Notes: generated by a model from the sequence alone, not told the origin. 64,000 bases of DNA from Thermoanaerobaculia bacterium (GCA_963664405.1 OY761158.1:1536001-1600000), one strand, 5' to 3'; numbered from the stretch's first letter, positions 6,397 to 23,558 are shown. Made by a program: numbers and translations.

Positions 6397-7278
6397 TCAA
6401 TTTCTTGCCTCCTTCCCTTCGGTCTGCACGACCTCGAGTTGATCCTTCGGGGCGTAGAAGTAAGAACCGGGGCGAAACTCGTAGCCCAGGTCGCCGAGCA
6501 GCCGTCGTTGGCGTGGCGTGCAGCGATCCTTGACCTCGGAAACCGTCTCGAAGTCGTAGGCGCGCACGAACATCTGAGCGTAGTTGTAGAGGATGGTCTT
6601 TCTCGCCCTGCCCGAGAGATTGGGCGAAGGCCCGTGCCAGAGCGAGTGAGGAAACACAATGCAGTCGCCGGCCTTTCCTCTGAGCTGCACCGCCCCTGGC
6701 GGCCGCGCGCTCTGCCCCGGCTTCACGCTCTCCGGGAACGGCCTCAGGTGGCTGCCTGGCGAGACGGTGAAGTTCCCCATGTTGGGCTCGGGGGTGTCCG
6801 ACAGAAGGTAGAGGGCCTTCAACGCCAGCGGCCTGCTTGTCTCGGTGACCCGGACGCGACGCAGCGCTTCGCCGCCATCGGTGTGGGTATAACCCCTGAA
6901 CTCGGGATCCGAAGGGCGCACGATCGCCTGGGTCATGCTGAGGAGCAGGTAGGGGCCCATGATGTCGACGATCAGGTCGAAGACCTCCGGCCGATCCATC
7001 AGATCGATGAAAGCGGGATGAAAGGGAAGAAGGTCGCGGCGATCCATGAACCCCTCCGGATCCAGATCGAGGGCATGATCGAGCCGCGCATAGTGCCCCA
7101 GCGGGCCGTCGGGACTGGGCTCCCAACCGGGTATCTGTCGAATGCGGTCCAGCTCGGCATTGAAGAAATCGACTTCGTCGCTGGAGAGCACTCCTTCGAG
7201 GTGCAGGTAGCCGTCGATGGCCCACTTCTCGCGCTGTTCTTCACTGAGACACTTCATGCAACTCTCCTTCGCTGACAC
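6397..7278 (-). CDS. Phytanoyl-CoA dioxygenase (PhyH) family 2OG-Fe(II) oxygenase
   Basis: DGYLHLEGVL; HTD facial-triad motif; GNFTVSPGSH; AGDCIVF..LWHG...N.S...R. Confidence 0.85.
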   Translation of the reverse strand: MSAKESCMKCLSEEQREKWAIDGYLHLEGVLSSDEVDFFNAELDRIRQIPGWEPSPDGPLGHYARLDHALDLDPEGFMDRRDLLPFHPAFIDLMDRPEVFDLIVDIMGPYLLLSMTQAIVRPSDPEFRGYTHTDGGEALRRVRVTETSRPLALKALYLLSDTPEPNMGNFTVSPGSHLRPFPESVKPGQSARPPGAVQLRGKAGDCIVFPHSLWHGPSPNLSGRARKTILYNYAQMFVRAYDFETVSEVKDRCTPRQRRLLGDLGYEFRPGSYFYAPKDQLEVVQTEGKEARN

Positions 7279-7332
7279 GGTGGCTAGGCCGCGGGACTAA
7301 TCCTGCGCCCGTCAATATATCGCGAGCAAATC

Positions 7333-8382
7333 TCAGATCTGCGGCATCACCTTCTCGGCAAAGAGGCGCATCGACTCCTGTGCCGGCTCCAGGGCGAGGT
7401 CGTTGAAGTTGACCTGGAGCGACGCGATCTCGAAACCACCGACGAGATCCTGATAGGCGGCGATCTGATCGACAATGCGCTCAGGGGAGCCGACCCAGGC
7501 ACCGCCCTTCTCCACCTGGCTCTCGAAAGTCTCAGCGCTCAGCCCGGCGATGATCTTGTCGTAGCCGGGGTAGTCGGAAGAGCTGACACCGGCAGTCCAG
7601 TCGGAAGCCGCTGCAACCAGCGAGCTCAGATAGCCATTCAGTGGTTCGCGCGCGATCTCGGCGGCCTCGCGATCGGTCGCGGCGCAGAACATATGGAAGG
7701 CGAGCATCACCCGACCGTCTCCCGGGTGTCCGGCGGCTCGCCAGGCTTCGCGATAGAACCCAAGCAGTTCCCTCATCCTGCCGCCGGCAAGGGGAATGGC
7801 CATCACCGAGTGGCCCGCGCGACCCGCGTTGACGAAAGACTCGGGCGTCGCCAGAGCAGCCACCCAGAACGGCGGCCGCGGCCGTTGGGTGGGGCGCGGC
7901 AGAGAGGTCACATTCTCGAAGCTGTGGAAGCGCCCCTCCATCGATAGGTCTTCTTCTTCGAGCAGTCGACGCACCTGCTCCAGACCCTCGTCGAAGCGCG
8001 CCCGGCTCTCGTCGACACTGACCCCGAAGCGGGCGAACTCGTGGGGCAGAAAGGCGCGAGCGAAGCCGACTTCGAGCCGGCCGCCGGAGATGGCGTCGAG
8101 CATGCCGATCTCCCCCGCCAACTTGAGCGGGTGGTTGAAGACAGGCAGCACGGCGCCGGTGATCAGGCGGGCTTGGGCGGTGCGCATCGCCGCCGCGGTG
8201 AGAAAAACGATCGGGCTCGGGCTGTAGCCGCCATAGTCACGGAAGTAGTGCTCGACCGTACGAACCGAAGTGAAGCCGAGCTCGTCGACCAGATCGACGA
8301 GTTGGAGACACTCGGCGAAATAGGCCTCGCCACTCTTCCGCTCGGGGCCGACGTCGGGGAAGAACTGGATGCCGAATTCCAC
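7333..8382 (-). CDS. LLM-class (luciferase-like) flavin-dependent oxidoreductase
   Basis: ELGFTSVRTVEHYF; HPLKLAGEIGMLDAISGGRLEVGFARA; PRPTQRPRPPFWVA; SMRLFAEKVMP. Confidence 0.9.
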   Translation of the reverse strand: MEFGIQFFPDVGPERKSGEAYFAECLQLVDLVDELGFTSVRTVEHYFRDYGGYSPSPIVFLTAAAMRTAQARLITGAVLPVFNHPLKLAGEIGMLDAISGGRLEVGFARAFLPHEFARFGVSVDESRARFDEGLEQVRRLLEEEDLSMEGRFHSFENVTSLPRPTQRPRPPFWVAALATPESFVNAGRAGHSVMAIPLAGGRMRELLGFYREAWRAAGHPGDGRVMLAFHMFCAATDREAAEIAREPLNGYLSSLVAAASDWTAGVSSSDYPGYDKIIAGLSAETFESQVEKGGAWVGSPERIVDQIAAYQDLVGGFEIASLQVNFNDLALEPAQESMRLFAEKVMPQI

Positions 8383-8448
8383 AGGAGGAGTGTAGCCCGA
8401 GGGGCCTATTCTCCGGGCACCGACCGCTTCAACCTTTTCCGGGCACCA

Positions 8449-8862
8449 TCAGAGGGCCAACACTCGACAGCGCAGTCCTTCGACGCGGCGAAAGTGCTCC
8501 TCTCCCTCCGGGCCGACCAGGACCCCGAAGTCGAGGCTGAGAGCCGTCGCTGCAACGGCCAGGTCGTTGGCAGGAATCAGCTGGCCGCGGCGACTGAGCT
8601 CCGCAAAGAGATCCGCCCAGCGGTCGGCAACAGAGCGGTCGAAGTCGACGATTGGACAGCGCGCCACGATGGCCTCAACGCGAGCTCGGCGCTCGGTGGC
8701 GCGGCTCTCCGTATCGGCCAGGTGTACTCCGACCATGAGCTCAGCGTACACGACCGCAGGGACTACCGCCCCCTCAGATCCCATCGTACCGAGGCCGTCC
8801 TCAAAGGAGCCCTCCGATCGCTCCAGAGCGATCAGGGCGCTGGTGTCGAGCGCGAGGCCCAC
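8449..8862 (-). CDS. vapC: PIN-domain VapC toxin
   Basis: [34 protein letters not shown] motifs; downstream of an antitoxin. Confidence 0.85.
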
Positions 8863-9116
8863 GGGTTCTCCGGCGGACGATCCGCCCGATTGACTCGCTC
8901 GAGATCGTCTGCCAGCTCGGGGTCAGGCGGCGCTGCCTCGCGCCAGGCGCGCAGCCCCTCTGCCAGGGTAGCCGAGCTGCGGGTAGGGAGTGGGGAAAGC
9001 CGGGCGATCGGTTCCCCGTTTCGCTCCACCACGAACGAATCGCCCCGGTAGCGGATGCGACCGAGAACGTCTCCGAGCTTGCGCGCAAGCTCGGTAGCGC
9101 TGATCGAAGACTCCAT
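8832..9116 (-). CDS. Phd/YefM-family antitoxin
   Basis: [36 protein letters not shown]; overlaps the PIN gene. Confidence 0.85.
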
Positions 9117-9150
9117 CTTGATGTGTATTATACCTAATTACGTAAATTCA
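9117..9150 (-). promoter_or_regulatory. AT-rich promoter/operator of the Phd-VapC operon
   Basis: On the minus strand TTGAAT...TATAAT-like hexamers flank a TTACGTAA palindrome just upstream of the antitoxin ATG. Confidence 0.5.
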
Positions 9151-9209
9151 ACAACGACCAGACGGCCTCAGCGAGAGGTGCCCGCGCCGGAGAGAAGCAA
9201 GTCGGCTCG

Positions 9210-10253
9210 ATGATAGCTGCGTGTTTTACAGGCCACGGGGGGCACTGCTACTCTTCCCGACTTGCGCACCCAATTCCCCTGCGAACACCGCATGAGGACG
9301 TCGCCCTCGGAGCTCCCACCTACCGTTCCGGTACTACGACCAGGGAGCTGTGGACTTTAATGGGCTCGTGTCCTGCCAGGCCTATGAGTGCAGGCTCGCG
9401 GCGGATCAGCTTCGCCGGAGCGAGTGTGGAAATCGAGTACGAAGGGGACAGCGCAAGAGAGCTCGTTGACTTCGTCTGCGCCGAGGTCGACACCGACACT
9501 TCGGATTCTCCTGGCACAACGCTGCGCCTGACCACGACTTCTCCCGGCCAGGTTTGTCTTTCTTCTGACGGCAAGAGCATGGCGACAGGGGCTGCCGATG
9601 GACACATGGCGGCCCTCCTTATGGACCAGGTCATTGAGCGTCTCGCGCGCTCCGCGGGCAGCGGGCTCATGTTCCATGCCGCAGCTGTGGCGAGAAGAGG
9701 TAGGGGCGTAATGTTGCCTGGGCAGTCCGGCTGCGGCAAGACCACGCTCGCTGCGTGGTTGGCTGGCGGCTGTTTTGACTGTCTGACCGACGAGTTGGTC
9801 TTGTTGCCACCCGGTGAGCCGTTGGTCGCCGGACTGCCGCGCCCCCTTAAGGTCCGACGCGGCTCGTGGACGTTGTTGGGCCCCCGCACTCGCGGTTGGC
9901 CCCAGCAAAACGAGGGCCTAGTGACGCGCGATGCGCGTCTGATCCACGCGACCGCTCTGAGACCCAGCAACGCGACCGGCACGGTGCCATTGGATCTGAT
10001 CCTTTTCGCGCGCTACGACACTTCGGGAGACAACCGGTTCAGAGAGCTGACGAGTGCACAGGTGGGGTTTCGACTGATGGAGTGCCTCGTCAACGCGCGC
10101 AACCTTGCGGGTCATGGCTTCGGAGAGATCGCCCGTATCGCGCGCTCAGTGCCGGCCTACGAGGTAGGCTACAGCGAGTGCGGGCGCGTAGAAGGTGGAA
10201 TCAAGAAGCGCTTGGCTCGTCTCAGCGCTAGCAGCCCGACAACAACGGAGTAG
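9210..10253 (+). CDS. HprK-related serine kinase (HPr-rel-A / lasso-peptide-kinase-like); likely start ATG 9384 or 9360
   Basis: FHAAAV..GRGVMLPGQSGCGKTTLAAWL (Walker A), LTDELV, PRPLKV; C-terminal helix pattern typical of HprK C-domain-only kinases. Confidence 0.8.
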   Translation: MIAACFTGHGGHCYSSRLAHPIPLRTPHEDVALGAPTYRSGTTTRELWTLMGSCPARPMSAGSRRISFAGASVEIEYEGDSARELVDFVCAEVDTDTSDSPGTTLRLTTTSPGQVCLSSDGKSMATGAADGHMAALLMDQVIERLARSAGSGLMFHAAAVARRGRGVMLPGQSGCGKTTLAAWLAGGCFDCLTDELVLLPPGEPLVAGLPRPLKVRRGSWTLLGPRTRGWPQQNEGLVTRDARLIHATALRPSNATGTVPLDLILFARYDTSGDNRFRELTSAQVGFRLMECLVNARNLAGHGFGEIARIARSVPAYEVGYSECGRVEGGIKKRLARLSASSPTTTE

Positions 10254-10259
10254 TAGACC

Positions 10260-11441
10260 GTGTTTGGACTCGATTACCTGCTCTCCCCCTGTGACGGAGA
10301 AGACTTCCTGAACGACTATTGGGGTCTGAAGGCCCTATACGTGCCCGGAGAGAAGGGCAAGTTCGGGGATCTCTTCGGTTGGGAGGACATCAACCACATC
10401 ATGACCTACGGGCGGATGCGGTACCCGGACGTCAGACTGGTTCAGGAAAAGAATCATCTGCCGCAGGAGGCCCTATCGAAACTCGATCACTGGCTGACCA
10501 AGGGGGCCACGCTGGTCGTCAACTCCATTCAGAGGCTCGATCCTGTCGTCGATCGCTTTGCCTCGGCGCTGGCCAACGAGATGAACTCCCCGATCAACAT
10601 CAACTCCTATACCTCGTGGCCGGCGAAGCAGGGTTTCGACACCCACTACGATCGTCACGATGTTTTCGTGGTTCAGGTCGCCGGTTGCAAAACCTGGACG
10701 GTGGCCGCGCCAACGCATCCTTTCCCCGTCGAACAGGAGGCAGGCCGCCTCGAGCCGCCGCAGGAGCTGGACACCTACTTGGAGTGCGAGCTGAGCGAGG
10801 GAGACGTCCTATACATCCCCAGGGGTCATTGGCACTTCGCGGTGGCCAACACTCCCAGTATCCACCTCACCGTCGGCACATCGCCAAGGACGGGGGTAGA
10901 CTTCCTGACCTGGCTGGCCGAACGGCAGATGGCCCGAGACGACTTCTTTCGCCGGGATCTCCCCCTGCCACGAACCGAGGCCCTGGCGGGGAACCGCCAA
11001 GCGTCGAACCTCGAAGAGCACTGGGACGAGCTGGTGCGGCGTCTACAGAGCCTCTTTGCGGAAGCCGGACTCCGAGAGGAGTTTCTCCAATACTGCATGA
11101 CCCAGAACCGGCCTATCCACTCGCTGCAACTCCCCGAACTGGTGACTCTTCGCGAGGATCTCACCATGGAGACACCCTTCGTCATGGCTCCGGACCAGAA
11201 GGCTCTGGTCGCCTACAAGGGTGATGCGGGCTCGGCGACAGTGACAGTGCGCGGTAAGATAATCAAGTTCGAGAACCTCCCCGAAGGCCTCCTTGATGCG
11301 TTCCTCGAAATAGGGGGCAGAGTGAGCGGAGCCGATCTGCTGGCGGTCTGCCCCGACCTCGAGGTGGAACAAGTAAAGCGGTTCCTCCTCGAAATGTTCG
11401 AAAACGGTATCCTGCGTCTGGCCGAGCCTGCAGTGGGCTGA
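10260..11441 (+). CDS. JmjC/cupin_4 (ROXA/YcfD-like) 2OG-Fe(II) protein hydroxylase with C-terminal winged-helix-like domain
   Basis: FLNDYWGLKALY; QGFDTHYDRHDVFVVQVAGCKTW; LSEGDVLYIPRGHWH; SIHLTVG; C-terminal LLEMFENGIL. Confidence 0.9.
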   Translation: MFGLDYLLSPCDGEDFLNDYWGLKALYVPGEKGKFGDLFGWEDINHIMTYGRMRYPDVRLVQEKNHLPQEALSKLDHWLTKGATLVVNSIQRLDPVVDRFASALANEMNSPININSYTSWPAKQGFDTHYDRHDVFVVQVAGCKTWTVAAPTHPFPVEQEAGRLEPPQELDTYLECELSEGDVLYIPRGHWHFAVANTPSIHLTVGTSPRTGVDFLTWLAERQMARDDFFRRDLPLPRTEALAGNRQASNLEEHWDELVRRLQSLFAEAGLREEFLQYCMTQNRPIHSLQLPELVTLREDLTMETPFVMAPDQKALVAYKGDAGSATVTVRGKIIKFENLPEGLLDAFLEIGGRVSGADLLAVCPDLEVEQVKRFLLEMFENGILRLAEPAVG

Positions 11442-11493
11442 GATCCGCGCTGTTCAGATCGTTCGGCGCGCCACCGCCTCCGCGTAGGGCGGC

Positions 11494-12069
11494 TTATGTG
11501 TTGGGTAGAAAGTTGACGGTGACGACGCAGTCGAGGTAACCGGGTGCACTGAAAGTTCCGCTGACACCGGCTTGATCCGCGCCGGCGTCAGTGCCGGGCT
11601 GATATTCGACGTCCTCGAAGACGGCAAGTCCGCCGTCGTTGGTGATCGCATCCTGATCCGAGCCCCCGGGGGGGCCGAAGCCCACGTCGCTCGCGCCGAC
11701 GGCCTTGAAGTCGAGATTGACGGTCACGCCAGCGACAGGCGGGCTGACCGATGCTCGAACTACGTCGATGTCGTGATCTTCACTGAAGACGCCTACGGGC
11801 TCGTTGTGAACTCCTTCATCGAAGGGCGTCGCTTCTCGAATGAAGTCCAGCGTGTACTCACAAGACAGTGAGCCTTCCGGGCTGAATTGAGCGTGAGCCG
11901 GCAGAGAGCCGAGACCGGCCAAGGGCTCTGCCCACCTTTCGGGAACTATCTTCGAGGTTGCCACCGCGCCGCCCGAGATCGCAAGAGCCTTCAGCAGCTT
12001 GCGGCGCGCGCGGGAATGCTTCTCTTCTAACGGGGCTGGTTGGCTCTTCGGATCTCCGGTACGCGTCAT
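11494..12069 (-). CDS. Tat-signal exported protein with WxxP...LPAHAQ leader and an acidic beta-rich (Ig-like) mature domain
   Basis: GGAGGAG RBS before ATG 12069; ARRKLLK twin-arginine motif; PERWAEPLAGLGSLPAHAQFS; mature part VVRASVSPPVAGVTVNLDF...AITNDGGLAVF with two Cys. Confidence 0.75.
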   Translation of the reverse strand: MTRTGDPKSQPAPLEEKHSRARRKLLKALAISGGAVATSKIVPERWAEPLAGLGSLPAHAQFSPEGSLSCEYTLDFIREATPFDEGVHNEPVGVFSEDHDIDVVRASVSPPVAGVTVNLDFKAVGASDVGFGPPGGSDQDAITNDGGLAVFEDVEYQPGTDAGADQAGVSGTFSAPGYLDCVVTVNFLPNT

Positions 12070-12201
12070 CAACGCTCCTCCATCGACCTAAGTTTTCTCA
12101 AGTGACGAATGGATTGTAGCACGAGGTCTCGGCTCATGCCCGGTACGCGGCACTCACACGATTGTCCGGGCTGGGACGCTCCGCGATAGCATGCCATCAC
12201 C

Positions 12202-12495
12202 ATGGACGGTGCGAGTGTTCCTAAACGGAACGAGGCCCTCAAGGGTGAGCTCCTCGACGACGAGCTACTGCTCTACTACGAGAGTGAGACCCAGATCATT
12301 GCGCTGAATCCGACGGCATCCCTGGTGTGGACGCTGTGCGATGGCGAGCGAAGCTTGGCGACAATCAAAGACCTTCTCGTGGAGGCCTATCCCGATGAAG
12401 CGACTCGAATACCGATAGAGGTGACTTCGATTGTCGAGAAAATGGTGCACATCGGGGCGCTCCAACTGGAGGCCATTTCCGGCAGCGTGCCGTGA
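12202..12495 (+). CDS. Stand-alone PqqD-family RiPP recognition element (RRE)
   Basis: LDDELLLY...IIALNPTASLVWTLCDGERSLATI..LL.EAYP...EVTSIVEKMVHIGAL is the PqqD pattern; 97 aa. Confidence 0.9.
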   Translation: MDGASVPKRNEALKGELLDDELLLYYESETQIIALNPTASLVWTLCDGERSLATIKDLLVEAYPDEATRIPIEVTSIVEKMVHIGALQLEAISGSVP

Positions 12496-13046
12496 GTCGC
12501 TAAACCGAATAGACCCTGAGCCGCCAAGGCAGAGAAGCTGCCCACCACGCCCAGCTAGCGAGGGTGCTCCTACCGTGCAGAGGGAAGAGAATCTGCTTGT
12601 TGCCGGGCGCCGGCGGCACGAGGCCAAAGACTGCCAACCCGAGAGTCGGGCTTGACCTGTCGATTCCCGGAAGTGTTATTTCATCGAGGACTTCGGCCAA
12701 TCCGAGGTGTCGCTCGCGAACCTCCATCAGACGTAAAGTGAGCTCGAGTGCCACTGCACCGAGGAGCCGCAGGCCCTGCCTGTCCAGCTCATCAAAGTGC
12801 CTACGCCAACGGTGCGCCTCGCCGAAGGCCTCGATCACACGAAGCAGGTCGACGACGGATCGAAGCCGAAGCCGACCTAGCTCGAGATCTTTGATCACGG
12901 TAAGAACCTGAATCAAGAGACTGACTCTGGGCGAAGGCACCGGATAGGTCCAGTGTCTGAGATCCACGTGCTGGTGATCCCTCCAGATGGGATCCACATC
13001 GATCCGCACGCCGTACTCGCGCACGAGCCGCCAATGCTGTTACCGG

Positions 13047-13403
13047 CTACGAGAAAGCGCACTTAGTTGGCTGCGAGTCGGTTTTTTGTCCCCGCGAGGC
13101 GTGACTCAGGGTGTGGCGCAGATAGTCGAGGTACCCCTCGGGGGGTGGCGTCGTGGGGAGTTCTCGGAGGATGGGGAGAAAGTAGGCGAGGGATCGGATG
13201 GGCTGGAGCTTTGGTAGGCGCGGATCTCGGCATGCGCGTCGGGCGGAGCCGAGGAGGAGGGCGGCCTGGAGGACGGTGAGAGGCAGGTCTTGGTCGAAGA
13301 GCTGGTCGACGATGACGCGGTCGCCGTGGTGGAAGCGGTGCGGGGTGTCGGGAAGGAGTCGATAGAGGCGGAGGAGCTGGCGCCGATAGTGGCTTCGGGT
13401 CAT
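13047..13403 (-). CDS. IS-associated small hypothetical protein downstream of istB
   Basis: ATGA overlap with the istB stop; LLRLY..LPDTP...DR...LQAALLLGSARR...IRSLAYFLP; stop lies inside the terminal IR. Confidence 0.65.
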   Translation of the reverse strand: MTRSHYRRQLLRLYRLLPDTPHRFHHGDRVIVDQLFDQDLPLTVLQAALLLGSARRACRDPRLPKLQPIRSLAYFLPILRELPTTPPPEGYLDYLRHTLSHASRGQKTDSQPTKCAFS

Positions 13404-14209
13404 GAGCGTCGTCGTGCTGCGCTCCGCCTTTTGGCGCGGTCCTTGGCCTTTTTTTCAGCAGCCTCCTTGGCCTCCTTGCGGCGATAGGAGTTAGCCTCGA
13501 TCTTGACGATCTCGGCGTGGTGGGTGAGTCGATCGACGAGAGTGACGACGCAGGAGGCGTTGGGAAAGACCTCGGCCCATTCGGCGAAGGGCTTGTTGGT
13601 GGTGAGAAGAATGGGCTTGTTGCCGTATCTCCTGGAGACGACCTCGAAGAGGAGATCCGCGTGGCGGTGGTCGTAGGAGAGATAGCCGAGCTCATCGATT
13701 GCCAAAAGCGAGGGTCGGGTGTATTTGGAGAGCCTTCTCTGGAGCGCCGAGGGGGTTTCCTGGACGGCGAGATCGTTGAGCATGTCGGAGGCGGTGACGA
13801 AGCTGGCGGTGGCCCCTCGTTGCAGCGCCTGGTAGAGGAGGTTCTTGGCAATCATGGTCTTGCCGACACCGTTGGGTCCGAGGAGGATGACGTTGGTGAT
13901 GTCGTCGAGGAATTGGAGGGTGAGCAGATCCTGGATCTGCTCGCGGTCGATGCGCTGGGGCCAGGAGAAGTCGAAGTCGGCGATGCTCTTGAAGAGCCCG
14001 ACGCGGCTGGTGCGGATGCGCCGTTCGAGGCTGCGCCGTTTGCGCTCGGCCTCTTCTTTGCGCAGCAGCTGTTCGAGCCAGGGCTGTTCTCGGTAGGTGC
14101 CCCAGTCGTCGACGAGGGCGTAGAAGCCGAGGGATCGGGCGAGCTCTCGTAGTGGTTCGTCAGGGATCGTTGGACTCTTCCTGGGTCGGGCCATCGTCGT
14201 TGCCTCCAA
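13400..14209 (-). CDS. istB: IS21 helper ATPase IstB
   Basis: KSIADFDFSW; GPNGVGKT Walker A; LLAIDELGYL Walker B; LTTNKPFAEW; DRLTHHA. Confidence 0.95.
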   Translation of the reverse strand: MEATTMARPRKSPTIPDEPLRELARSLGFYALVDDWGTYREQPWLEQLLRKEEAERKRRSLERRIRTSRVGLFKSIADFDFSWPQRIDREQIQDLLTLQFLDDITNVILLGPNGVGKTMIAKNLLYQALQRGATASFVTASDMLNDLAVQETPSALQRRLSKYTRPSLLAIDELGYLSYDHRHADLLFEVVSRRYGNKPILLTTNKPFAEWAEVFPNASCVVTLVDRLTHHAEIVKIEANSYRRKEAKEAAEKKAKDRAKRRSAARRRS

Positions 14210-15668
14210 GTTGGTCGTAGTCCTCGAGGTTGTGCGGTCTCACGGAGAGATCTCGCTGTTGGAGCTCCTGGCTGAGCGGCACCGGTAAAGCCGGGGGCTG
14301 ACCGAGGCCGCGCTGGTGCCGTTCGAGTAGGAGCCGGACGGACTGGAATCGCGGTGCGTGGTTCAGGAGCGCTTCGCGCACGGCTTTGTCGAGTCGCTGG
14401 GGGCCGTACTGGCGCAGGAGTCGGAGCAGGCCGGCGGTCTGCGTTCCGAGGTTCTCGCCTCGCTCGGCGAGCTGCTGCATCAGCTCTTCGCATCGAGGCA
14501 CAGCGGAAAACAGCCGATGGAAGCCCCGGTGTCGTCGGGCCCTGCGTTTGTGAGCGAGGAGCTCCTCGAGGTGTTGAGGATCGAGGATCTGCTCGCCCCG
14601 GGAGTACGAGCGAGGGTGCTCGGCGAGGAGCTCCTGGCCATCGAGGATCCGCACCCGATGCTCGCTGGCGAGGAGCGTGACGGTCCTCTGCACATGACTG
14701 TGCGGCACCGAGTAGTCGTTGAGGTCGAAGCGCACGATCGGCGTCTTTCTGACCTTGATCTCCAGTCGCAGGTCGGTTTCAAAGTCGTCTCCGGGAAGCT
14801 CAAGCAGTCGAGGTCGTTCCTGGGCCAGGGCGCTTTTCACGGTTCGCTGTCGGTCCTGCGGCCAGGGTCTGCGCTGCGACCTCTGGCACCATTCCAGGAC
14901 CTGCCGATTCAGACGATCCAAATCGCTCACCGTTCGGGCGCCGAAGAACGAGCTTCGCAGGAAGCGGATTGCGCGCTCGACGCGGCCTTTCTCATTTCCC
15001 CGAGCCACCGCGGCGACGGTGGGAAGGAAGCCGTAGTGGCTGGCGAAATCGAGCAGCACGGGATGGAAGCGCACCGCGGTTCCCTGCCGCTCGATCACCG
15101 CGGTTCGCAGGTTGTCGTACAGAACGGTCCTGACGACGCCGTCGACGTAGTGGAAGGCCAGCTGGTGAGCGTGCAAGAAGGTTTCGAGACGAGTGTCGAG
15201 GGTGAAGTGCACGAAGACCGTGCGCGAGAACGACAGCACGAAGACGAAGGCATAGAGCCGACGATGTGCCCGGCCGACGCGGAGCCGACCGAAGTGGCCC
15301 CAGTCGACCTGCGCCTGCTCTCCTGGCAGCATGCGCAGCGAGAGAAACGCCTCGCGCTGGGGCTTCGGTCGCATCGAGGCCACCAGGTGGCGAAACTGAT
15401 CCGGGCCTCCTGGATAGCCGCGCTCCACCACCATGGTGTAGAGACGGCTCGCCGGCAGTCGTGGGTAGGTCCCGAGCACCTGCTCGATGAACGGCAGGTA
15501 AGGATCGATCATCCTCCCTCGTCGCTGCTGGGGTAGCACGCCGGACTTCTCCAGCGCCCGGCGCACGGTTGAGGGGTGCAGCTGTAGCTGTCGAGCGATC
15601 GTGCCGACTTTCCACTTCTCGACCAGGAACAGACGACGGATCTCCCCGCGCAGCTGTGCGTCGATCAC
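14160..15668 (-). CDS. istA: IS21 transposase IstA
   Basis: N-terminal HTH (TIARQLQLHPSTVRRAL); PGEQAQVDWG; LYDNLRTAV; NEKGRVER; FDLNDYSVP. Start taken at GTG 15668, just after the upstream ORF stop. Confidence 0.95.
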   Translation of the reverse strand: MIDAQLRGEIRRLFLVEKWKVGTIARQLQLHPSTVRRALEKSGVLPQQRRGRMIDPYLPFIEQVLGTYPRLPASRLYTMVVERGYPGGPDQFRHLVASMRPKPQREAFLSLRMLPGEQAQVDWGHFGRLRVGRAHRRLYAFVFVLSFSRTVFVHFTLDTRLETFLHAHQLAFHYVDGVVRTVLYDNLRTAVIERQGTAVRFHPVLLDFASHYGFLPTVAAVARGNEKGRVERAIRFLRSSFFGARTVSDLDRLNRQVLEWCQRSQRRPWPQDRQRTVKSALAQERPRLLELPGDDFETDLRLEIKVRKTPIVRFDLNDYSVPHSHVQRTVTLLASEHRVRILDGQELLAEHPRSYSRGEQILDPQHLEELLAHKRRARRHRGFHRLFSAVPRCEELMQQLAERGENLGTQTAGLLRLLRQYGPQRLDKAVREALLNHAPRFQSVRLLLERHQRGLGQPPALPVPLSQELQQRDLSVRPHNLEDYDQLGGNDDGPTQEESNDP

Positions 15669-15672
15669 GCCC

Positions 15673-16068
15673 CTATCTCCGTCGGCAACGACGAAAGCTC
15701 GTTCGCACAAACTCTCGGCAGGCCTCTCCACACTGCATGCATCGCGGATTCCTCGGGTCGTAGCGCACTTCGCGCCTCGGAGTCTCGATCCGACACAGTG
15801 TCCTCCCCGAAGTACCGCCTGGGGTACCCTGATGCGTCACTTTCTCTGCCCGCTCGCGCTGGCGCCGACGGTAGCGGGCCTGACGGGCGGCATGACAATG
15901 CCGACCTCGGAGGCTTCGCTGGTACCGATGGCCGGCCGCCCGAGTCGATTCCCGACGAGCCACCAGAGCACAAGCCCGGCAGTAACGCTGGCCACGGTCA
16001 CAGTGCGAGCACAGCGAGATACGCCGACGGCATCGAGCACAGTCGAAGAGTCGGTAGTCCGGTCGCAT
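15673..16068 (-). CDS. Cys-rich putative zinc-binding protein upstream of istA, inside the IS
   Basis: CARC, CSHCDRGQRYC..C, Arg-rich helix (HAARQARYRRRQ), KVTHQG, CMQC; stop abuts the istA start. Confidence 0.7.
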   Translation of the reverse strand: MRPDYRLFDCARCRRRISLCSHCDRGQRYCRACALVARRESTRAAGHRYQRSLRGRHCHAARQARYRRRQRERAEKVTHQGTPGGTSGRTLCRIETPRREVRYDPRNPRCMQCGEACREFVRTSFRRCRRR

Positions 16069-17041
16069 CGTCGCCTCCCATTCGACGACGACCCCGACTC
16101 TCTGCCATACTGCAAGCGCAGCTAATGCTGCGGTTTGGGGCAGAGCCCGGGGCGTTTTCTACTTCGCTTTCCCGGGCTCTCGCCGTCTCTGGTCGGCCTG
16201 CTCTATCAGAGCAGAGCCCGCACTGCAAAGCCCTACACCGACTCACGCATCTCTTCCGACCGCAAACACGCCGCCGGGACCACGCACCCGGACCGCCGTT
16301 CCGGCGGGATGATGCCGCCCTTCCTGAAGAAGGCCTAGCTTTCCCGCGGTCGCGAAGCCCTCAGCTCACTCCATCCCGGAAACTGCGCTCGCAGCCAACG
16401 GGATGCGCTTTCTCGCAGCCATCAACAAATGCAGCTCGACAGCCCATCGACCCCTGAGATACGTGAAGTGATGGGTAAAGAAACGGCTTAGCGCGCGGCC
16501 CCCAAGAGTCCGAGAGTTACTCTCGAAGCCCCCGACGCGAAGCACCTCTTCGGCGGCAGCAAATGCCTCAGAGTGGACGAGGATGTCGATATCTCCGACA
16601 GTCCTCAGGTCGAGCTCGCCGTAGAACCTGTGAGAGAAGAGAGGTCCCTTGAGGAAGAGATGATCTACCCCGCCGTCGGACAGCGCCTCGGAGATCTCTC
16701 TCATCCGAAGGAGTGCCTGAAGGGCTAGGACTCTCTGATTCCGTCGCGCCCCTTGCAGGGTCGCGCGAACGCCAGGCGGGACGTGTCTCCGGAGCCCATA
16801 CTTGCTGAGCGCCTCTCTTGCAAGCACTGCCAGACCGTGCCTGGAAAAAAAGGAGTTGAGAGCGCCCGACGAGAGACTGCTCTCCTCCAGCCGCGCCACG
16901 AAGGTTTCACGCTCACCTGCAAGTAATGGTGGGATCACCCGCCAGATCTCGCTCTCACTTGCTCCGCGAGGGCTCAGCGCGCCCCTACCGGGTGACGGAC
17001 TTTGAGCCTTTGCTAGCATCCAAGGTGCCCGCTTTCACGAC

Positions 17042-18343
17042 GTGCATAGTTCTTTTGTGTCCTCTCCGGCTTTCAGGCTGCGCTGGCTGGTGCTAGCGAT
17101 TCTACTCGTTCGCCTCGGTCCCTGGGTCTGGTTCGGCCGCGTCCAGCCCTTCACATACGACGAGAAGGAATACGACAAAATCGCGGTTCAGCTCGCCCAA
17201 AGAGGTGAGTTCGCCGTCACCCCGGGGGTTCTGACCTCGATTCGCCCTCCTCTCTACCCGGCGATGGTGGCGGGCGTCTATCGTTTGTTCGGTGTTCGCA
17301 ACTACCAGGCCGTGCGCCTGCTGCAGGTGGTATTGAACGCAGGTATCGCGGTTGTCGTCTACCTACTTGGCTACGCTCTCTACGACGCTCGCACCGGATG
17401 GTGGGCTGCAGCGCTCATAGGTTTCTACCCCTCGCTATGGGGGCACGACTACCTCCTCCTCACCGAGGTTCTTTTCACCTTTCTGCTCTGCCTAGGTACG
17501 CTGCTTCTTCTGCACTTCTTCGCACGGGAGAACTGGCCGCTACTGATCATCGGTGGCGGTCTGCTCGGCCTCGCCACTCTCACGCGAAGCGCGCTTCAGC
17601 TCTATCCGCCTCTGTTCGTCCTCATCGTCCTCGCAATGATGAAGGTCCCTGTGCCGCGCCGTTTCGTGGTGGCTGCCGTGTTCACGCTGTCCTTCGCTGT
17701 TGTCGTTGGCCCGTGGATCGCCCGCAACTCCCGCCTCCATGGCTCGCTCGCATCCGTAGATTCCACCGCCACCCGACTCTTCAAGCTCTATGGCAAGCCG
17801 CGGCTCAAAGCGATCGTGGGCAGCCCGGTGTCGACGCAAGGCTCTCGTCTGCCCGGCGGGGGATCCGCGACAACAATCCGCTGGGCGGTGAAACGGAGCT
17901 TCCTCTTCTGGCAAGTGGATAGAGAGCTGACCGGCGCGGCGGCGAGCGGCCGACTGGGTCCGATCCCACGGCAAATAGTTGTACTGCTGGCCCTTGCTAT
18001 CGGCGGCTACTATGCTGCTCTGGCCGCCCTGGGGCTCGTCGGCGCGGTTCTTCGACCCCCGCCTGACCGAATACAGCTGGTACTGATCCTTTCCTTCTTT
18101 GTGTTACTAGTGGGAGTTCACTCAATGATCCTCGGCCACTCCCGCTACCACATCCCTCTCATGCCCTTTGTCTGCCTCTTCGCGGCTCGGCTCATTGTCG
18201 TTCCGCCCCATAGAGAAGAGCGCAGACGTTTGGCGTGGGCTCTCTTGGCACTTCTCATACTCGCGGTCAGCTGGGTTATCGGCCTCGTAAGCGTAGACCT
18301 CCCCGAGCTCCTAGAGGGTCTGGGCGTCGGCCGTGAAGTCTGA
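17042..18343 (+). CDS. ArnT/PMT-like (GT39/GT83) membrane glycosyltransferase
   Basis: DEKEYDKIA; SIRPPLYP; LLTEVLF; GLATLTR; PWIARN; SRYHIPLMPF; many transmembrane helices. Confidence 0.85.
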   Translation: MHSSFVSSPAFRLRWLVLAILLVRLGPWVWFGRVQPFTYDEKEYDKIAVQLAQRGEFAVTPGVLTSIRPPLYPAMVAGVYRLFGVRNYQAVRLLQVVLNAGIAVVVYLLGYALYDARTGWWAAALIGFYPSLWGHDYLLLTEVLFTFLLCLGTLLLLHFFARENWPLLIIGGGLLGLATLTRSALQLYPPLFVLIVLAMMKVPVPRRFVVAAVFTLSFAVVVGPWIARNSRLHGSLASVDSTATRLFKLYGKPRLKAIVGSPVSTQGSRLPGGGSATTIRWAVKRSFLFWQVDRELTGAAASGRLGPIPRQIVVLLALAIGGYYAALAALGLVGAVLRPPPDRIQLVLILSFFVLLVGVHSMILGHSRYHIPLMPFVCLFAARLIVVPPHREERRRLAWALLALLILAVSWVIGLVSVDLPELLEGLGVGREV

Positions 18344-21404: not shown

Positions 21405-23558
21405 CTACAACGCGAACACCCAGATGGCGGCCCCACCTTTGGGTGAGCCTAGCCGCGGCGCGTCCGCGCCCGAGCCGAACCCTCCTAGAGCTCCGGTCAG
21501 TCCAGCGATATGAAAGTTGCCCATCCCCACCACCACCGCGACGTATTGTCTGCCCCCAACTCTGTAGGTGACGAGACTCGAGCTGGGAAAGGCGTCGAGC
21601 TTCGTCTGCCACAATAGCTCGCCGCTAGTGTCATCGAAGGCCTTCAAGGACGGCTCCATGTCGCCGGAGAAGAGCAGCCCACCAACCGTCGCAAGTAGCC
21701 CGGTCGAGGGCGGAGTGACTTGATTGTGAGTCCACGCCAACTTCCGGTTGGCGACGTCGATGGCCTGCACACGACCTACCATGCCGTCGGCGGTCTCCGG
21801 GTGCGCTCCGATCGATATCCCCACGCCGGAGGTTAGAAGCCGCAGCCCCGCCCGACCCATAGTCATACACGACTCGGTCAGCGGCACGTACGCCATCTTC
21901 GTCTGCGGACTGTAGGACGTCGGCGGCCAGCTTCTAGCCCCGAACGCGCTCGGGCATACCTCGGTGGATCTCTCAACATCTGGCATCTTGTCGGGGTCGA
22001 TAGTCTTGGCGCCGGTCACCGGATCGATGGCCGTAATGACGTTCTGTATTCCGGTATCCACCGAAAACAGATATTCGCCGGTCGCGGCATCCAACGCTTC
22101 GAGAATCGCCATCTTCCCTACATTCATCACCGCCTTGCGAGCAGTGCCGTTCACCGACACGTTCACTATCTGGCGCTCGAAGACCCAATCCAGGTCCCAT
22201 TGATCGTTCGCCATGTGCTGGTAATGCCAGACCAATGCGCCGGTCTCGGCATTGAGCGCCACGGTGCAGTTGGTATAGAGCGCGTTGTTGTTTACGCCCT
22301 CCTTCTCCGAAGGATGCAAGAGCGGACCGGTGTCGTAGGTCGGCGCCACGCCAAAATAGATCAGGTTCAACTCGGCGTCATAGGTGCCCTGATGCCAAAT
22401 GGAGCCCCCACTCCTCTTCTCCAACGCCACGTCATTCCAGCTGTTCCCATAGGGATCGCCGGGCCGAGCGATGGTGTTGAAGCGCCAGGCTTCTTCGCCT
22501 GAGTCGATATCGATCGCGACGACAAAGCCACCCCTCGGTGCAAAGCTCGCCGTCACTCCCTGGATCACCTTGTCGCCTACAGCCAACGGAGCGCTTCTGA
22601 GGTTGTATGCCCCGCGCATCAAGGGCGTCTCGGTCGTGATCTCGTGATCCCAGACCAACTCCCCCGTTTTGGCGCGCAGAGCCAGCACGTGCAGATCGGA
22701 AGTGGGAACAAGAACCTTGTCTCCATGCAGCGCCAGCCCCATCTTTTGGCTGGAGGATGATTTCGGGTGGTATTGGTAGCGCCACAGAACCTGCCCATTC
22801 GAGGCATCCAGCGCAAGCACCGTATCGGGGAAGGTGTGCAGAAACATGACCCCCTGGTGTACCAACGGCATGGCCATATTGGCACCATCGCGAAGGGGCG
22901 CACGCCAGGCGAGCGCCAGGTAACCCACGTTCTCGCGGTCGATCTGCTTCAGGGGGCTGAAGGTCTGGCCGTCGTAGGTACGGCCGCTGTGCAGCCAGTC
23001 ATCGGGGGAGGGATCGAGCCGCATCTCGGCGGTCACAGGAGGGAGCTTGTTCAACAGCTCCGAAGTGCCTGCCGCCACCACGGGCGCGTCAGGCTCGTAT
23101 TCCGCGCCCTCCAGCTTCGGAATCGTCAGCTCGCTGAGGCCCTCCAGATCCGACGGCAGGACCTCGTCGCCGGCCTCGAGACCGTTGGACTCGAAAATGA
23201 ACGCCAGGATGTTGACGTAGACCTCATCGCCCAACCCACCAGGCGCGTCGATCGGCTCCGGCGGCATGCGACTAAGATGGAAGGCGAGCACTCCGGCGGA
23301 CTTCCCCCGCCACGACGTGTCGAAACGCGAACCCACGAGAGAAGGCGACACCTGCTCCCCCTGCAAGCGCGGCCCGTGACACGAGGCGCAATGCTCCCGA
23401 TAGCTCGCTCTGCCCTCGGCGACCTGGTCCGCCGTAAAGCTCGGCGTCTTCGCCAAGCTTGCTGACTGCCACGGACTCACCGCTATAAACAGCAGCCACG
23501 GGCATCCGGCTCGCCGTAGAAATGCCATCACTGAATTCCTCGCTTTTCGCCGATTCAT
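21405..23558 (-). CDS. PQQ-dependent dehydrogenase with N-terminal cytochrome c domain
   Basis: CASCHG heme motif after the signal peptide; DWLHSGR...FSPLKQI; ALDASNGQVLW; WHYQHMANDQWDLD; GGRQYVAV. Confidence 0.9.
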   Translation of the reverse strand: MNRRKARNSVMAFLRRAGCPWLLFIAVSPWQSASLAKTPSFTADQVAEGRASYREHCASCHGPRLQGEQVSPSLVGSRFDTSWRGKSAGVLAFHLSRMPPEPIDAPGGLGDEVYVNILAFIFESNGLEAGDEVLPSDLEGLSELTIPKLEGAEYEPDAPVVAAGTSELLNKLPPVTAEMRLDPSPDDWLHSGRTYDGQTFSPLKQIDRENVGYLALAWRAPLRDGANMAMPLVHQGVMFLHTFPDTVLALDASNGQVLWRYQYHPKSSSSQKMGLALHGDKVLVPTSDLHVLALRAKTGELVWDHEITTETPLMRGAYNLRSAPLAVGDKVIQGVTASFAPRGGFVVAIDIDSGEEAWRFNTIARPGDPYGNSWNDVALEKRSGGSIWHQGTYDAELNLIYFGVAPTYDTGPLLHPSEKEGVNNNALYTNCTVALNAETGALVWHYQHMANDQWDLDWVFERQIVNVSVNGTARKAVMNVGKMAILEALDAATGEYLFSVDTGIQNVITAIDPVTGAKTIDPDKMPDVERSTEVCPSAFGARSWPPTSYSPQTKMAYVPLTESCMTMGRAGLRLLTSGVGISIGAHPETADGMVGRVQAIDVANRKLAWTHNQVTPPSTGLLATVGGLLFSGDMEPSLKAFDDTSGELLWQTKLDAFPSSSLVTYRVGGRQYVAVVVGMGNFHIAGLTGALGGFGSGADAPRLGSPKGGAAIWVFAL

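Follow-up and report, generated by a model that had tools for sequence, protein, structure and literature searches.

The stretch analysed here, to which we refer as the window, comprises 64,000 nucleotides from a Thermoanaerobaculia bacterium (GCA_963664405.1 OY761158.1:1536001-1600000), with all positions counted from its first letter. Between 9,210 and 18,343 it carries six clustered genes, which encode an HprK-like serine kinase, a JmjC-type 2-oxoglutarate (2OG) oxygenase, a 192-residue protein that is the candidate substrate of the system, a stand-alone PqqD-type protein, an NTP_transf_5 nucleotidyltransferase split by an insertion sequence, and a GT-C glycosyltransferase. An earlier reading of this DNA, made without database searches (the sequence-only reading), had recognized all six, and open reading frame (ORF) calls together with Pfam and NCBIfam searches place every one of them where it had put them. 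It had further proposed that the signal peptide of the 192-residue protein doubles as a leader of the kind known from peptides that are made on ribosomes and modified after translation (RiPPs), and that this leader is read by the PqqD protein. We now find that the N-terminal region of this protein belongs to a leader family that, as judged by sequence comparison, is large, unnamed and joined to diverse bodies, and that genes for such leader proteins recur beside genes for PqqD, kinase and nucleotidyltransferase in other genomes. The cassette is most likely a Gram-negative cousin of the peptide-modification pathway that yields linear polyphosphorylated peptides (LPPs), first described in 2026, with enzymes that decorate an exported protein prior to its export.

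The 192-residue protein (11494..12072, minus strand) matches no Pfam family and is the sole match to our leader profile in its genome. On the basis of invariant columns, a sequence logo and comparison with the twin-arginine translocation (Tat) model TIGR01409, it can be divided into a predicted leader comprising residues 1-61 (11890..12072) and a body of 131 residues. The leader displays, in order, the pair R23R24 followed by LLK, a Gly/Ala-rich hydrophobic stretch, P44, the motif W47xxP50 and the segment L57-P-A-H-A61, beyond which come Q62-F-S64. Ser64 (codon at 11881..11883), the third residue past the predicted AHA|Q cut, is the proposed phospho-acceptor, both on account of its conservation and by analogy to Ser3 of BsfA and LppA from two systems compared below. 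For the body only weak leads to bacterial Ig-like domains were obtained, in an Atlas feature search (0.78-0.81).

A profile built from five such leader proteins was searched against 1.84 billion representatives and recovered 3137 representative proteins at E<=1e-3, with 460 of them at E<=1e-10. These share only the N-terminal ~50 residues and are followed by widely different bodies, among which an NCBIfam scan detected VWA (von Willebrand factor type A) domains, further domain types being our reading of the sequences by eye. The sole NCBIfam match to the leader is the generic Tat model, none specific to it being found. A logo was prepared from 147 of the 150 best hits by anchoring them on the P-x-H-A site, with percentages referring to columns outside this anchor. 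It shows an invariant twin arginine (R 100%), followed by LLK and the Gly/Ala-rich hydrophobic stretch, and then P(-18) at 97%, W(-15) and P(-12) at 100% each and Q(+1) at 85%. Position +3 is occupied by S or T in 99% of the 147 representatives and in all 82 of 82 motif-bearing leader ORFs, and the C-terminal residue of the family is variable (Ser in 7/147). One subfamily (P0047, P0048, P0050, P0064, P0066 and the leader ORFs of loci L079, L081 and L107) displays a second motif resembling LD-x-[IV]-[IV]-P-x-A-H-A-Q about 35 residues past the first, which may represent a second processing or recognition site.

Leader genes and the three enzymes keep company well beyond the window. In G008, a genome of a different genus of the same family, a nucleotidyltransferase, a PqqD protein, a kinase, two sulfotransferases of the Sulfotransfer_3 family, a leader protein and a JmjC enzyme are encoded within 6.4 kb, in an order differing from that of the window. 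Across a phylum sample of 401 genomes the leader profile finds matches in six, and the genomes with kinase matches at E<=2.4e-23 are precisely these six leader-positive ones, the next best match lying at 1.6e-13; the threshold was set after this gap had been seen, and at E<=1e-8 a kinase match is present in 18 of the 401. At least one of PqqD, kinase and nucleotidyltransferase lies within 10 kb at six of the seven leader loci of the leader-positive genomes, the seventh (G321 C27) having none of them within that distance. Metagenomes were scanned with a closer, four-sequence leader alignment, the first alignment having been too diverse to be usable for this purpose, which yielded 80 loci, mostly short. 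When the ORFs around these leader genes were clustered, with the genome loci added to the 80, the commonest neighbours proved to be PqqD (10 loci), NTP_transf_5 (nine) and the kinase (eight), the next cluster reaching five; compact operons of leader, PqqD, kinase and nucleotidyltransferase genes are seen in L037, L048, L097, L101 and L113. The leader family, the recurrent enzyme neighbours and the six-out-of-six co-occurrence of leader and kinase thus support the proposal of a signal peptide that doubles as a RiPP-type leader. As to whether the complete gene set goes with WxxP...LPAHAQ Tat proteins in other genomes, an association the sequence-only reading had envisaged, PqqD, kinase and nucleotidyltransferase do recur with them, the JmjC gene does so only in G008, and the GT-C gene at no other locus examined.

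The kinase gene lies on the plus strand, with its longest ORF at 9210..10253; the publicly called product of 297 residues corresponds to a start at 9360. It has the Walker A motif GQSGCGKT and 37 homologues besides itself, at 26-42% identity. The PqqD-type protein (12202..12495, plus strand; PF05402, 41.6 bits) constitutes a stand-alone RiPP recognition element (RRE), and its profile matches PqqD itself, the lasso peptide B1 proteins TbiB1 and TfuB1, and two PqqD-family entries of 2026. Prediction of a complex between this protein and leader residues 18-70 gave a score of 0.43 against 0.01 for the best of three controls, with at least 84% of contacts agreeing between runs and a partner pLDDT (predicted local distance difference test) of at least 59. 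Of 157 solved complexes 116 pass the mark used for such predictions, as do two of 215 mismatched pairs; only 18 of the 157 pass it with a score of 0.60 or under, the range in which both passing mismatches also fall. The result is weak support for binding. Moreover, structures of RRE-leader complexes already exist, and memorisation of these by the predictor could account for the pass.

The nucleotidyltransferase gene, on the minus strand, is in two pieces. Its N-terminal half (16428..17019; PF14907, 95.3 bits) matches profile positions 13-146 and its C-terminal half (12500..13037) positions 153-248. Between them lies an element of 3390 bp (13038..16427, minus strand) with 40-nt inverted ends, flanked by a 5-bp AATGC target duplication. 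Its two genes, istA (14160..15731) and istB (13400..14209), score 244.8 bits with NF033546 and 210.6 bits with NF038214, and the IstA transposase, the IstB ATPase, the inverted repeats and the target duplication together assign it to the IS21 family. In-silico removal of the element along with one AATGC copy restores an open frame of 374 residues, ending at 12502, whose product aligns end to end with the intact G008 enzyme at 42% identity, in agreement with the earlier view of an enzyme split by an insertion sequence. The 6.78-Mb genome contains 20 further full-length copies at >=99.9% identity, as well as several fragments, which points to a recent IS21 expansion and, given the near-identity of these copies, to a recent insertion at this site. 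As judged from the disrupted frame, the nucleotidyltransferase step is knocked out in this strain, and the insertion can be regarded as a natural knock-out of the enzyme.

The gene content, the leader conservation, the linkage and the phyletic co-occurrence are established; the chemical steps we infer as follows. The 192-residue protein would be made with a 61-residue leader acting at once as a twin-arginine export signal and as a RiPP leader. The PqqD protein would bind the W47xxP50 stretch and present the LPAHA|Q-F-S64 junction to the HprK-like kinase, which would phosphorylate Ser64, perhaps repeatedly. Where the cassette is intact, this phosphate would be extended by the NTP_transf_5 enzyme, destroyed here by the IS21 element, with another group that is probably a sugar. 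A hydroxyl group would be placed at some site of the 192-residue protein by the JmjC enzyme. The decorated and possibly folded protein would then leave through Tat, with an ordinary signal peptidase cutting at AHA|Q; any part played by the GT-C enzyme is speculative. On balance, we think it probable that the RRE-guided phosphorylation of Ser3 known from the LPP and Bsf types occurs here in a version with a Tat leader, applied to a whole protein. More tentatively, and with somewhat less than even confidence, we extend this to thousands of leader proteins with unrelated bodies, which would be marked at +3 in the cytoplasm with a phosphate extended by sugars, here also with a hydroxyl group and in G008 with sulfate, before Tat export.

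Several observations tell against this interpretation. The models named in the sequence-only reading gave a divided result: PF05402, PF08007 and PF14907 were matched, but the kinase scores only 78.1 bits with TIGR04352 (HprK_rel_A), well below the cut-off of 200, and the PqqD protein has no TIGR04353 match at E<=0.01. Compared by sequence with solved structures, the kinase gives only P-loop matches, and the 2026 entry 9x8z (E 7.5e-4) stands no nearer to the PqqD profile than do PqqD and TbiB1. In G442 the kinase gene lies on a separate contig, none of its partners being encoded within 10 kb of it. By ORF clustering any of the three enzymes is found at 9/80 metagenome loci and all three at 4/80, the equivalent count by tblastn being 5/80, and even on contigs of at least 5 kb only 6/23 loci have any of them; since so few of the loci carry these enzymes, many leader genes must lie away from them. 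With its nucleotidyltransferase broken, this strain can have at most a partial pathway; furthermore, deletion of the corresponding gene in an LPP system had no detectable effect, according to the part of the LPP report available to us (PMC13381572). The other unfavourable findings concern the hydroxylase and the export signal, and are set out with the alternatives to which they lend weight.

The first alternative is that only the leader protein, PqqD, kinase and nucleotidyltransferase form a unit, the JmjC and GT-C genes being unrelated neighbours, with the JmjC enzyme acting, for instance, on a ribosomal protein. The JmjC gene (10260..11441, plus strand) encodes a ROX-type protein hydroxylase of the JmjC_2 family (PF08007, 91.8 bits against a cut-off of 22; Cupin_8, 31.4 bits) with an intact H-x-D...H metal site, H129, D131 and H192 being invariant in 30 homologues. 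No second JmjC_2 gene exists in the genome, a situation that would suit a housekeeping copy. Several homologues are named 'ribosomal protein L16 Arg81 hydroxylase' by the Joint Genome Institute (JGI), and the clade comprises more than 120 clusters, at 37-58% identity. Further, the 80 metagenome loci around leader genes yielded no JmjC gene, nor did the other five genomes with a leader protein yield one of comparable similarity. The GT-C gene (17042..18343, plus strand) is likewise uncertain as a member of the system. It encodes a PMT_2/ArnT-like enzyme (PF13231, 35.5 bits, cut-off 26.1), and its earlier labelling as 'GT39' is not borne out, as only PMT_2 is matched and not the PMT family proper; it has no homologue in the G008 locus and none that clusters with ORFs of the other leader loci examined.

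Set against this alternative is the position of the JmjC gene, which begins 6 bp past the kinase stop in the window, as the sequence-only reading had correctly noted, and ends 37 bp upstream of the leader gene, on the same strand, in G008. As it adjoins the kinase in the one case and the leader gene in the other, its linkage to the cassette has survived a rearrangement. The leader protein P0003 and the JmjC protein P0303 are each listed with a longest contig of 423,001 bp, which is no more than a hint of a common contig. In addition, among 61 relatives its clade is confined to this genome (G000) and G008 (E 2.3e-100; the next best match, at 1.3e-26, covers the catalytic domain only), and these are the same two genomes of the 61 that have the kinase clade. 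A further counterpoint comes from two metagenome loci in which a PqqD domain is fused to a domain of ~200 residues directly adjoining the leader gene (L079 3540-4478; L081 2006-2932). This domain contains the conserved stretches GWH[TS]N, RVYCTW and LWHCIQ, and its Atlas model resembles 2OG-Fe(II) oxygenase folds with template modelling (TM) scores of 0.56-0.60, which we treat as a lead only; on such models oxidation may be another recurrent theme of these loci. We hold it rather unlikely that the JmjC enzyme is a mere neighbour; among the loci examined the hydroxylase is lineage-specific, being cassette-linked here and in one related genus only. The possibility of an RRE in the last ~100 residues of the JmjC protein was also considered and rejected, with hhalign giving 1.1% probability over 31 columns against the PqqD alignment and Pfam nothing at E<=10.

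A second alternative holds that the N-terminal region is a RiPP leader that merely resembles a Tat signal, its removal taking place in the cytoplasm or through some protease not linked to the locus, so that the protein would be no Tat substrate. The 192-residue protein scores 15.2 with TIGR01409, below the cut-off of 16.7, as do 11 of the 16 family members tested. Moreover, ~20 residues separate the h-region from the AHA site, the conservation of P-A-H-A-Q-x-S goes far past what signal peptidase needs, and P-x-A-H-A-Q is repeated in the subfamily noted above. Nevertheless, the twin arginine and the sequence that follows it are retained throughout the 147 members of the logo, the remaining five of the 16 do pass the Tat model, VWA domains occur among the bodies, and the genome encodes TatC (232.7 bits). 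Likewise, none of the 23 ORFs scanned with Pfam between 6.4 and 21.4 kb of the window belongs to a peptidase family or to an ABC (ATP-binding cassette) transporter family, and no peptidase is recurrent among leader-gene neighbours. Export by Tat followed by cleavage by ordinary signal peptidase would account for a locus with no dedicated peptidase or ABC exporter, and we regard the alternative of a leader that only mimics a Tat signal as improbable.

The remaining alternative, that kinase, PqqD and nucleotidyltransferase have a glycan, a lipid-linked intermediate or some other non-protein molecule as their substrate, with the leader proteins being only co-regulated secreted proteins, draws on the presence of related gene sets among glycosyltransferases, including a second locus of this genome, and on the location of LPP clusters in capsule loci (PMC13381572), but is very improbable, as it leaves the conserved W, P and +3 Ser/Thr of the leader unexplained, as PqqD-type domains bind peptides in every studied case cited in the available portions of PMC10368454 and PMC13381572, and as homologous kinases phosphorylate peptides (PMC8498205, PMC10368454, PMC13381572, each likewise available in part).

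The second locus just mentioned (L023, G000:C1:5838001-5858000) lies outside the window and contains an HprK-like gene only distantly related to the window kinase (E 8.4e-6). Beside this gene there is a weak PqqD-like match by tblastn, and around it are glycosyltransferases of the GT2, GT4 and GT32 types; nearby lies the gene for an 825-residue fusion of a GT1-like domain and NTP_transf_5. The present family of leader proteins is not represented at this locus. A single-sequence search of genome contigs with the kinase gave one locus, with a weak match at the P-loop level.

Glycosyltransferases also accompany the leader genes themselves. In L034 a 140-residue leader gene is flanked by two fusion genes, one (10442-12592) encoding a 716-residue PqqD-GT2-GT25 protein and the other (7064-9238) a 724-residue protein joining NTP_transf_5 to a domain resembling FUT8; that genome has its kinase gene on another contig. 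In L036 a 1242-residue glycosyltransferase of four domains is encoded between the leader gene and the kinase, with homologues forming one ORF cluster in L031 and L033. These fusions and the multidomain enzymes with their homologues make sugar addition a recurrent theme at such loci.

Certain other genes are seen repeatedly in the vicinity of the cassettes. A luciferase-like monooxygenase is encoded 1-2 kb away both in the window (7333-8382) and in G008 (L013 4351-5355), the two proteins being 34% identical over 181 residues; this may reflect inherited synteny or point to a further tailoring enzyme. A protein resembling dehydrogenases dependent on pyrroloquinoline quinone (PQQ) is found within about 10 kb of the cassette at three loci (window 21405-23558, L013 1-396 and L034 3733-5325). 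The window copy (21405..23558) scores 338.6 bits with TIGR03075 and 301.5 bits with TIGR04528, 'acido-empty-quinoprotein'; this match and the name given by one source to the G008 JmjC protein indicate that the host probably belongs to Acidobacteriota. As the PQQ-dehydrogenase-like family is probably multi-copy per genome, its recurrence may be due to chance. Finally, a gene for a sigma factor of the extracytoplasmic function (ECF) type lies a few kb from the cassette in L096, L097 and L113, two of which are near-identical.

Were the favoured interpretation of a leader-guided modification preceding Tat export to hold, the RiPP machinery of RRE, kinase and nucleotidyltransferase would extend beyond small peptides to the tagging of whole exported proteins, with the instruction for the tag being read from the export signal itself. 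It would also provide a rationale for the use of Tat, which exports cargo that is already modified and bulky, and would amount to a leader-guided pathway of protein phosphoglycosylation in Gram-negative bacteria. A substrate family would be named for many orphan kinase/PqqD/nucleotidyltransferase cassettes, the LPP family of 2026 would be extended well beyond Bacillota, and the JmjC enzyme would be the first hydroxylase of its kind recruited to a RiPP-type cassette.

Among known systems, the JmjC enzyme is comparable to the ROX/JmjC_2 hydroxylases, namely YcfD/RoxA of E. coli and human NO66 and MINA53, which are protein hydroxylases, YcfD acting on a ribosomal protein. It shares PF08007 and the invariant H-x-D...H site with them, but is operon-linked to a RiPP-type cassette rather than standing alone. 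The HPr-rel-A systems (TIGR04352/TIGR04353) likewise pair a PqqD-family protein and a nucleotidyltransferase with a kinase that falls in the same superfamily, differing in the two model results given above. The same three enzyme types are found in the paeninodin and pseudomycoidin clusters (PadeK/PsmK, PsmN), where, according to a review, the nucleotidyltransferase PsmN, the one homologue studied, adds one or two hexoses to phosphoserine, where the sequence-only reading had proposed nucleotidylation, and sulfotransferase genes occur as they do in the G008 locus (PMC8498205); however, PadeK and PsmK act on a C-terminal Ser, whereas the C-terminus of the leader family is not conserved.

Two systems come closer, and the earlier view that no characterised system of this composition was known is not supported, since both share the logic of RRE, kinase and nucleotidyltransferase and the phosphorylation of Ser3, as far as the accessible parts of the two reports go (PMC13381572, PMC10368454). 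In the Bsf lasso cluster of Bradymonas sediminis the kinase BsfK phosphorylates core Ser3 with the help of the RRE BsfB1, the leader has YxxPxL at -17 to -12, and a nucleotidyltransferase gene of unknown role is present (PMC10368454, in part). That cluster also has a lasso cyclase, a B2 protease and an ABC transporter, for which we see no counterpart here: no macrolactam synthetase of the asparagine-synthetase-like type was seen in a search covering the locus ORFs, and the best genome-wide candidate for a B2 protease reaches only 18.4 bits with Transglut_core3 against a cut-off of 26, in accord with the sequence-only reading. The substrate, too, is a 192-residue protein and not a short peptide.

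The nearest relatives are the LPP clusters (LppA/K/B/S/D/N; Popov et al., Nat Commun 2026; PMC13381572). In the available text of that report, LPP precursors of 35-200 residues have a conserved N-terminus, YxxPxVLxHQxIxFET|xxS, followed by variable bodies, LppK places up to four phosphates on S3, the clusters sit in capsule loci, and LPPs are stated to be restricted to Bacillota; a term search of the paper found the words Tat, twin-arginine and Gram-negative absent. Nor did the literature collection that we searched yield any description of a Tat-leader version of the pathway. Here, as in the LPP clusters, a stand-alone RRE, a kinase resembling HprK and an NTP transferase are encoded together, a conserved N-terminus precedes a variable body, [Y/W]xxPxV stands ~10-16 residues before the cut with Ser at core position 3, and glycosyltransferases are frequent in the surroundings. 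The leader geometry, W(-15)xxP(-12)xV(-10) with S/T(+3), is that of LPP and Bsf shifted by one or two residues. Unlike LPP clusters, the present locus is without the SipW-like (archaeal-type) signal peptidase I and the MsbA-like exporter, and the leader has a putative twin-arginine signal, an LPAHA|QxS junction and W in place of Y, with HQxIxFET not present. The host lies outside Bacillota, and JmjC, sulfotransferase or GT-C genes are added to the set. What this locus itself contributes to the comparison is an operon-linked hydroxylase, a possible GT-C partner and a nucleotidyltransferase knocked out by nature.

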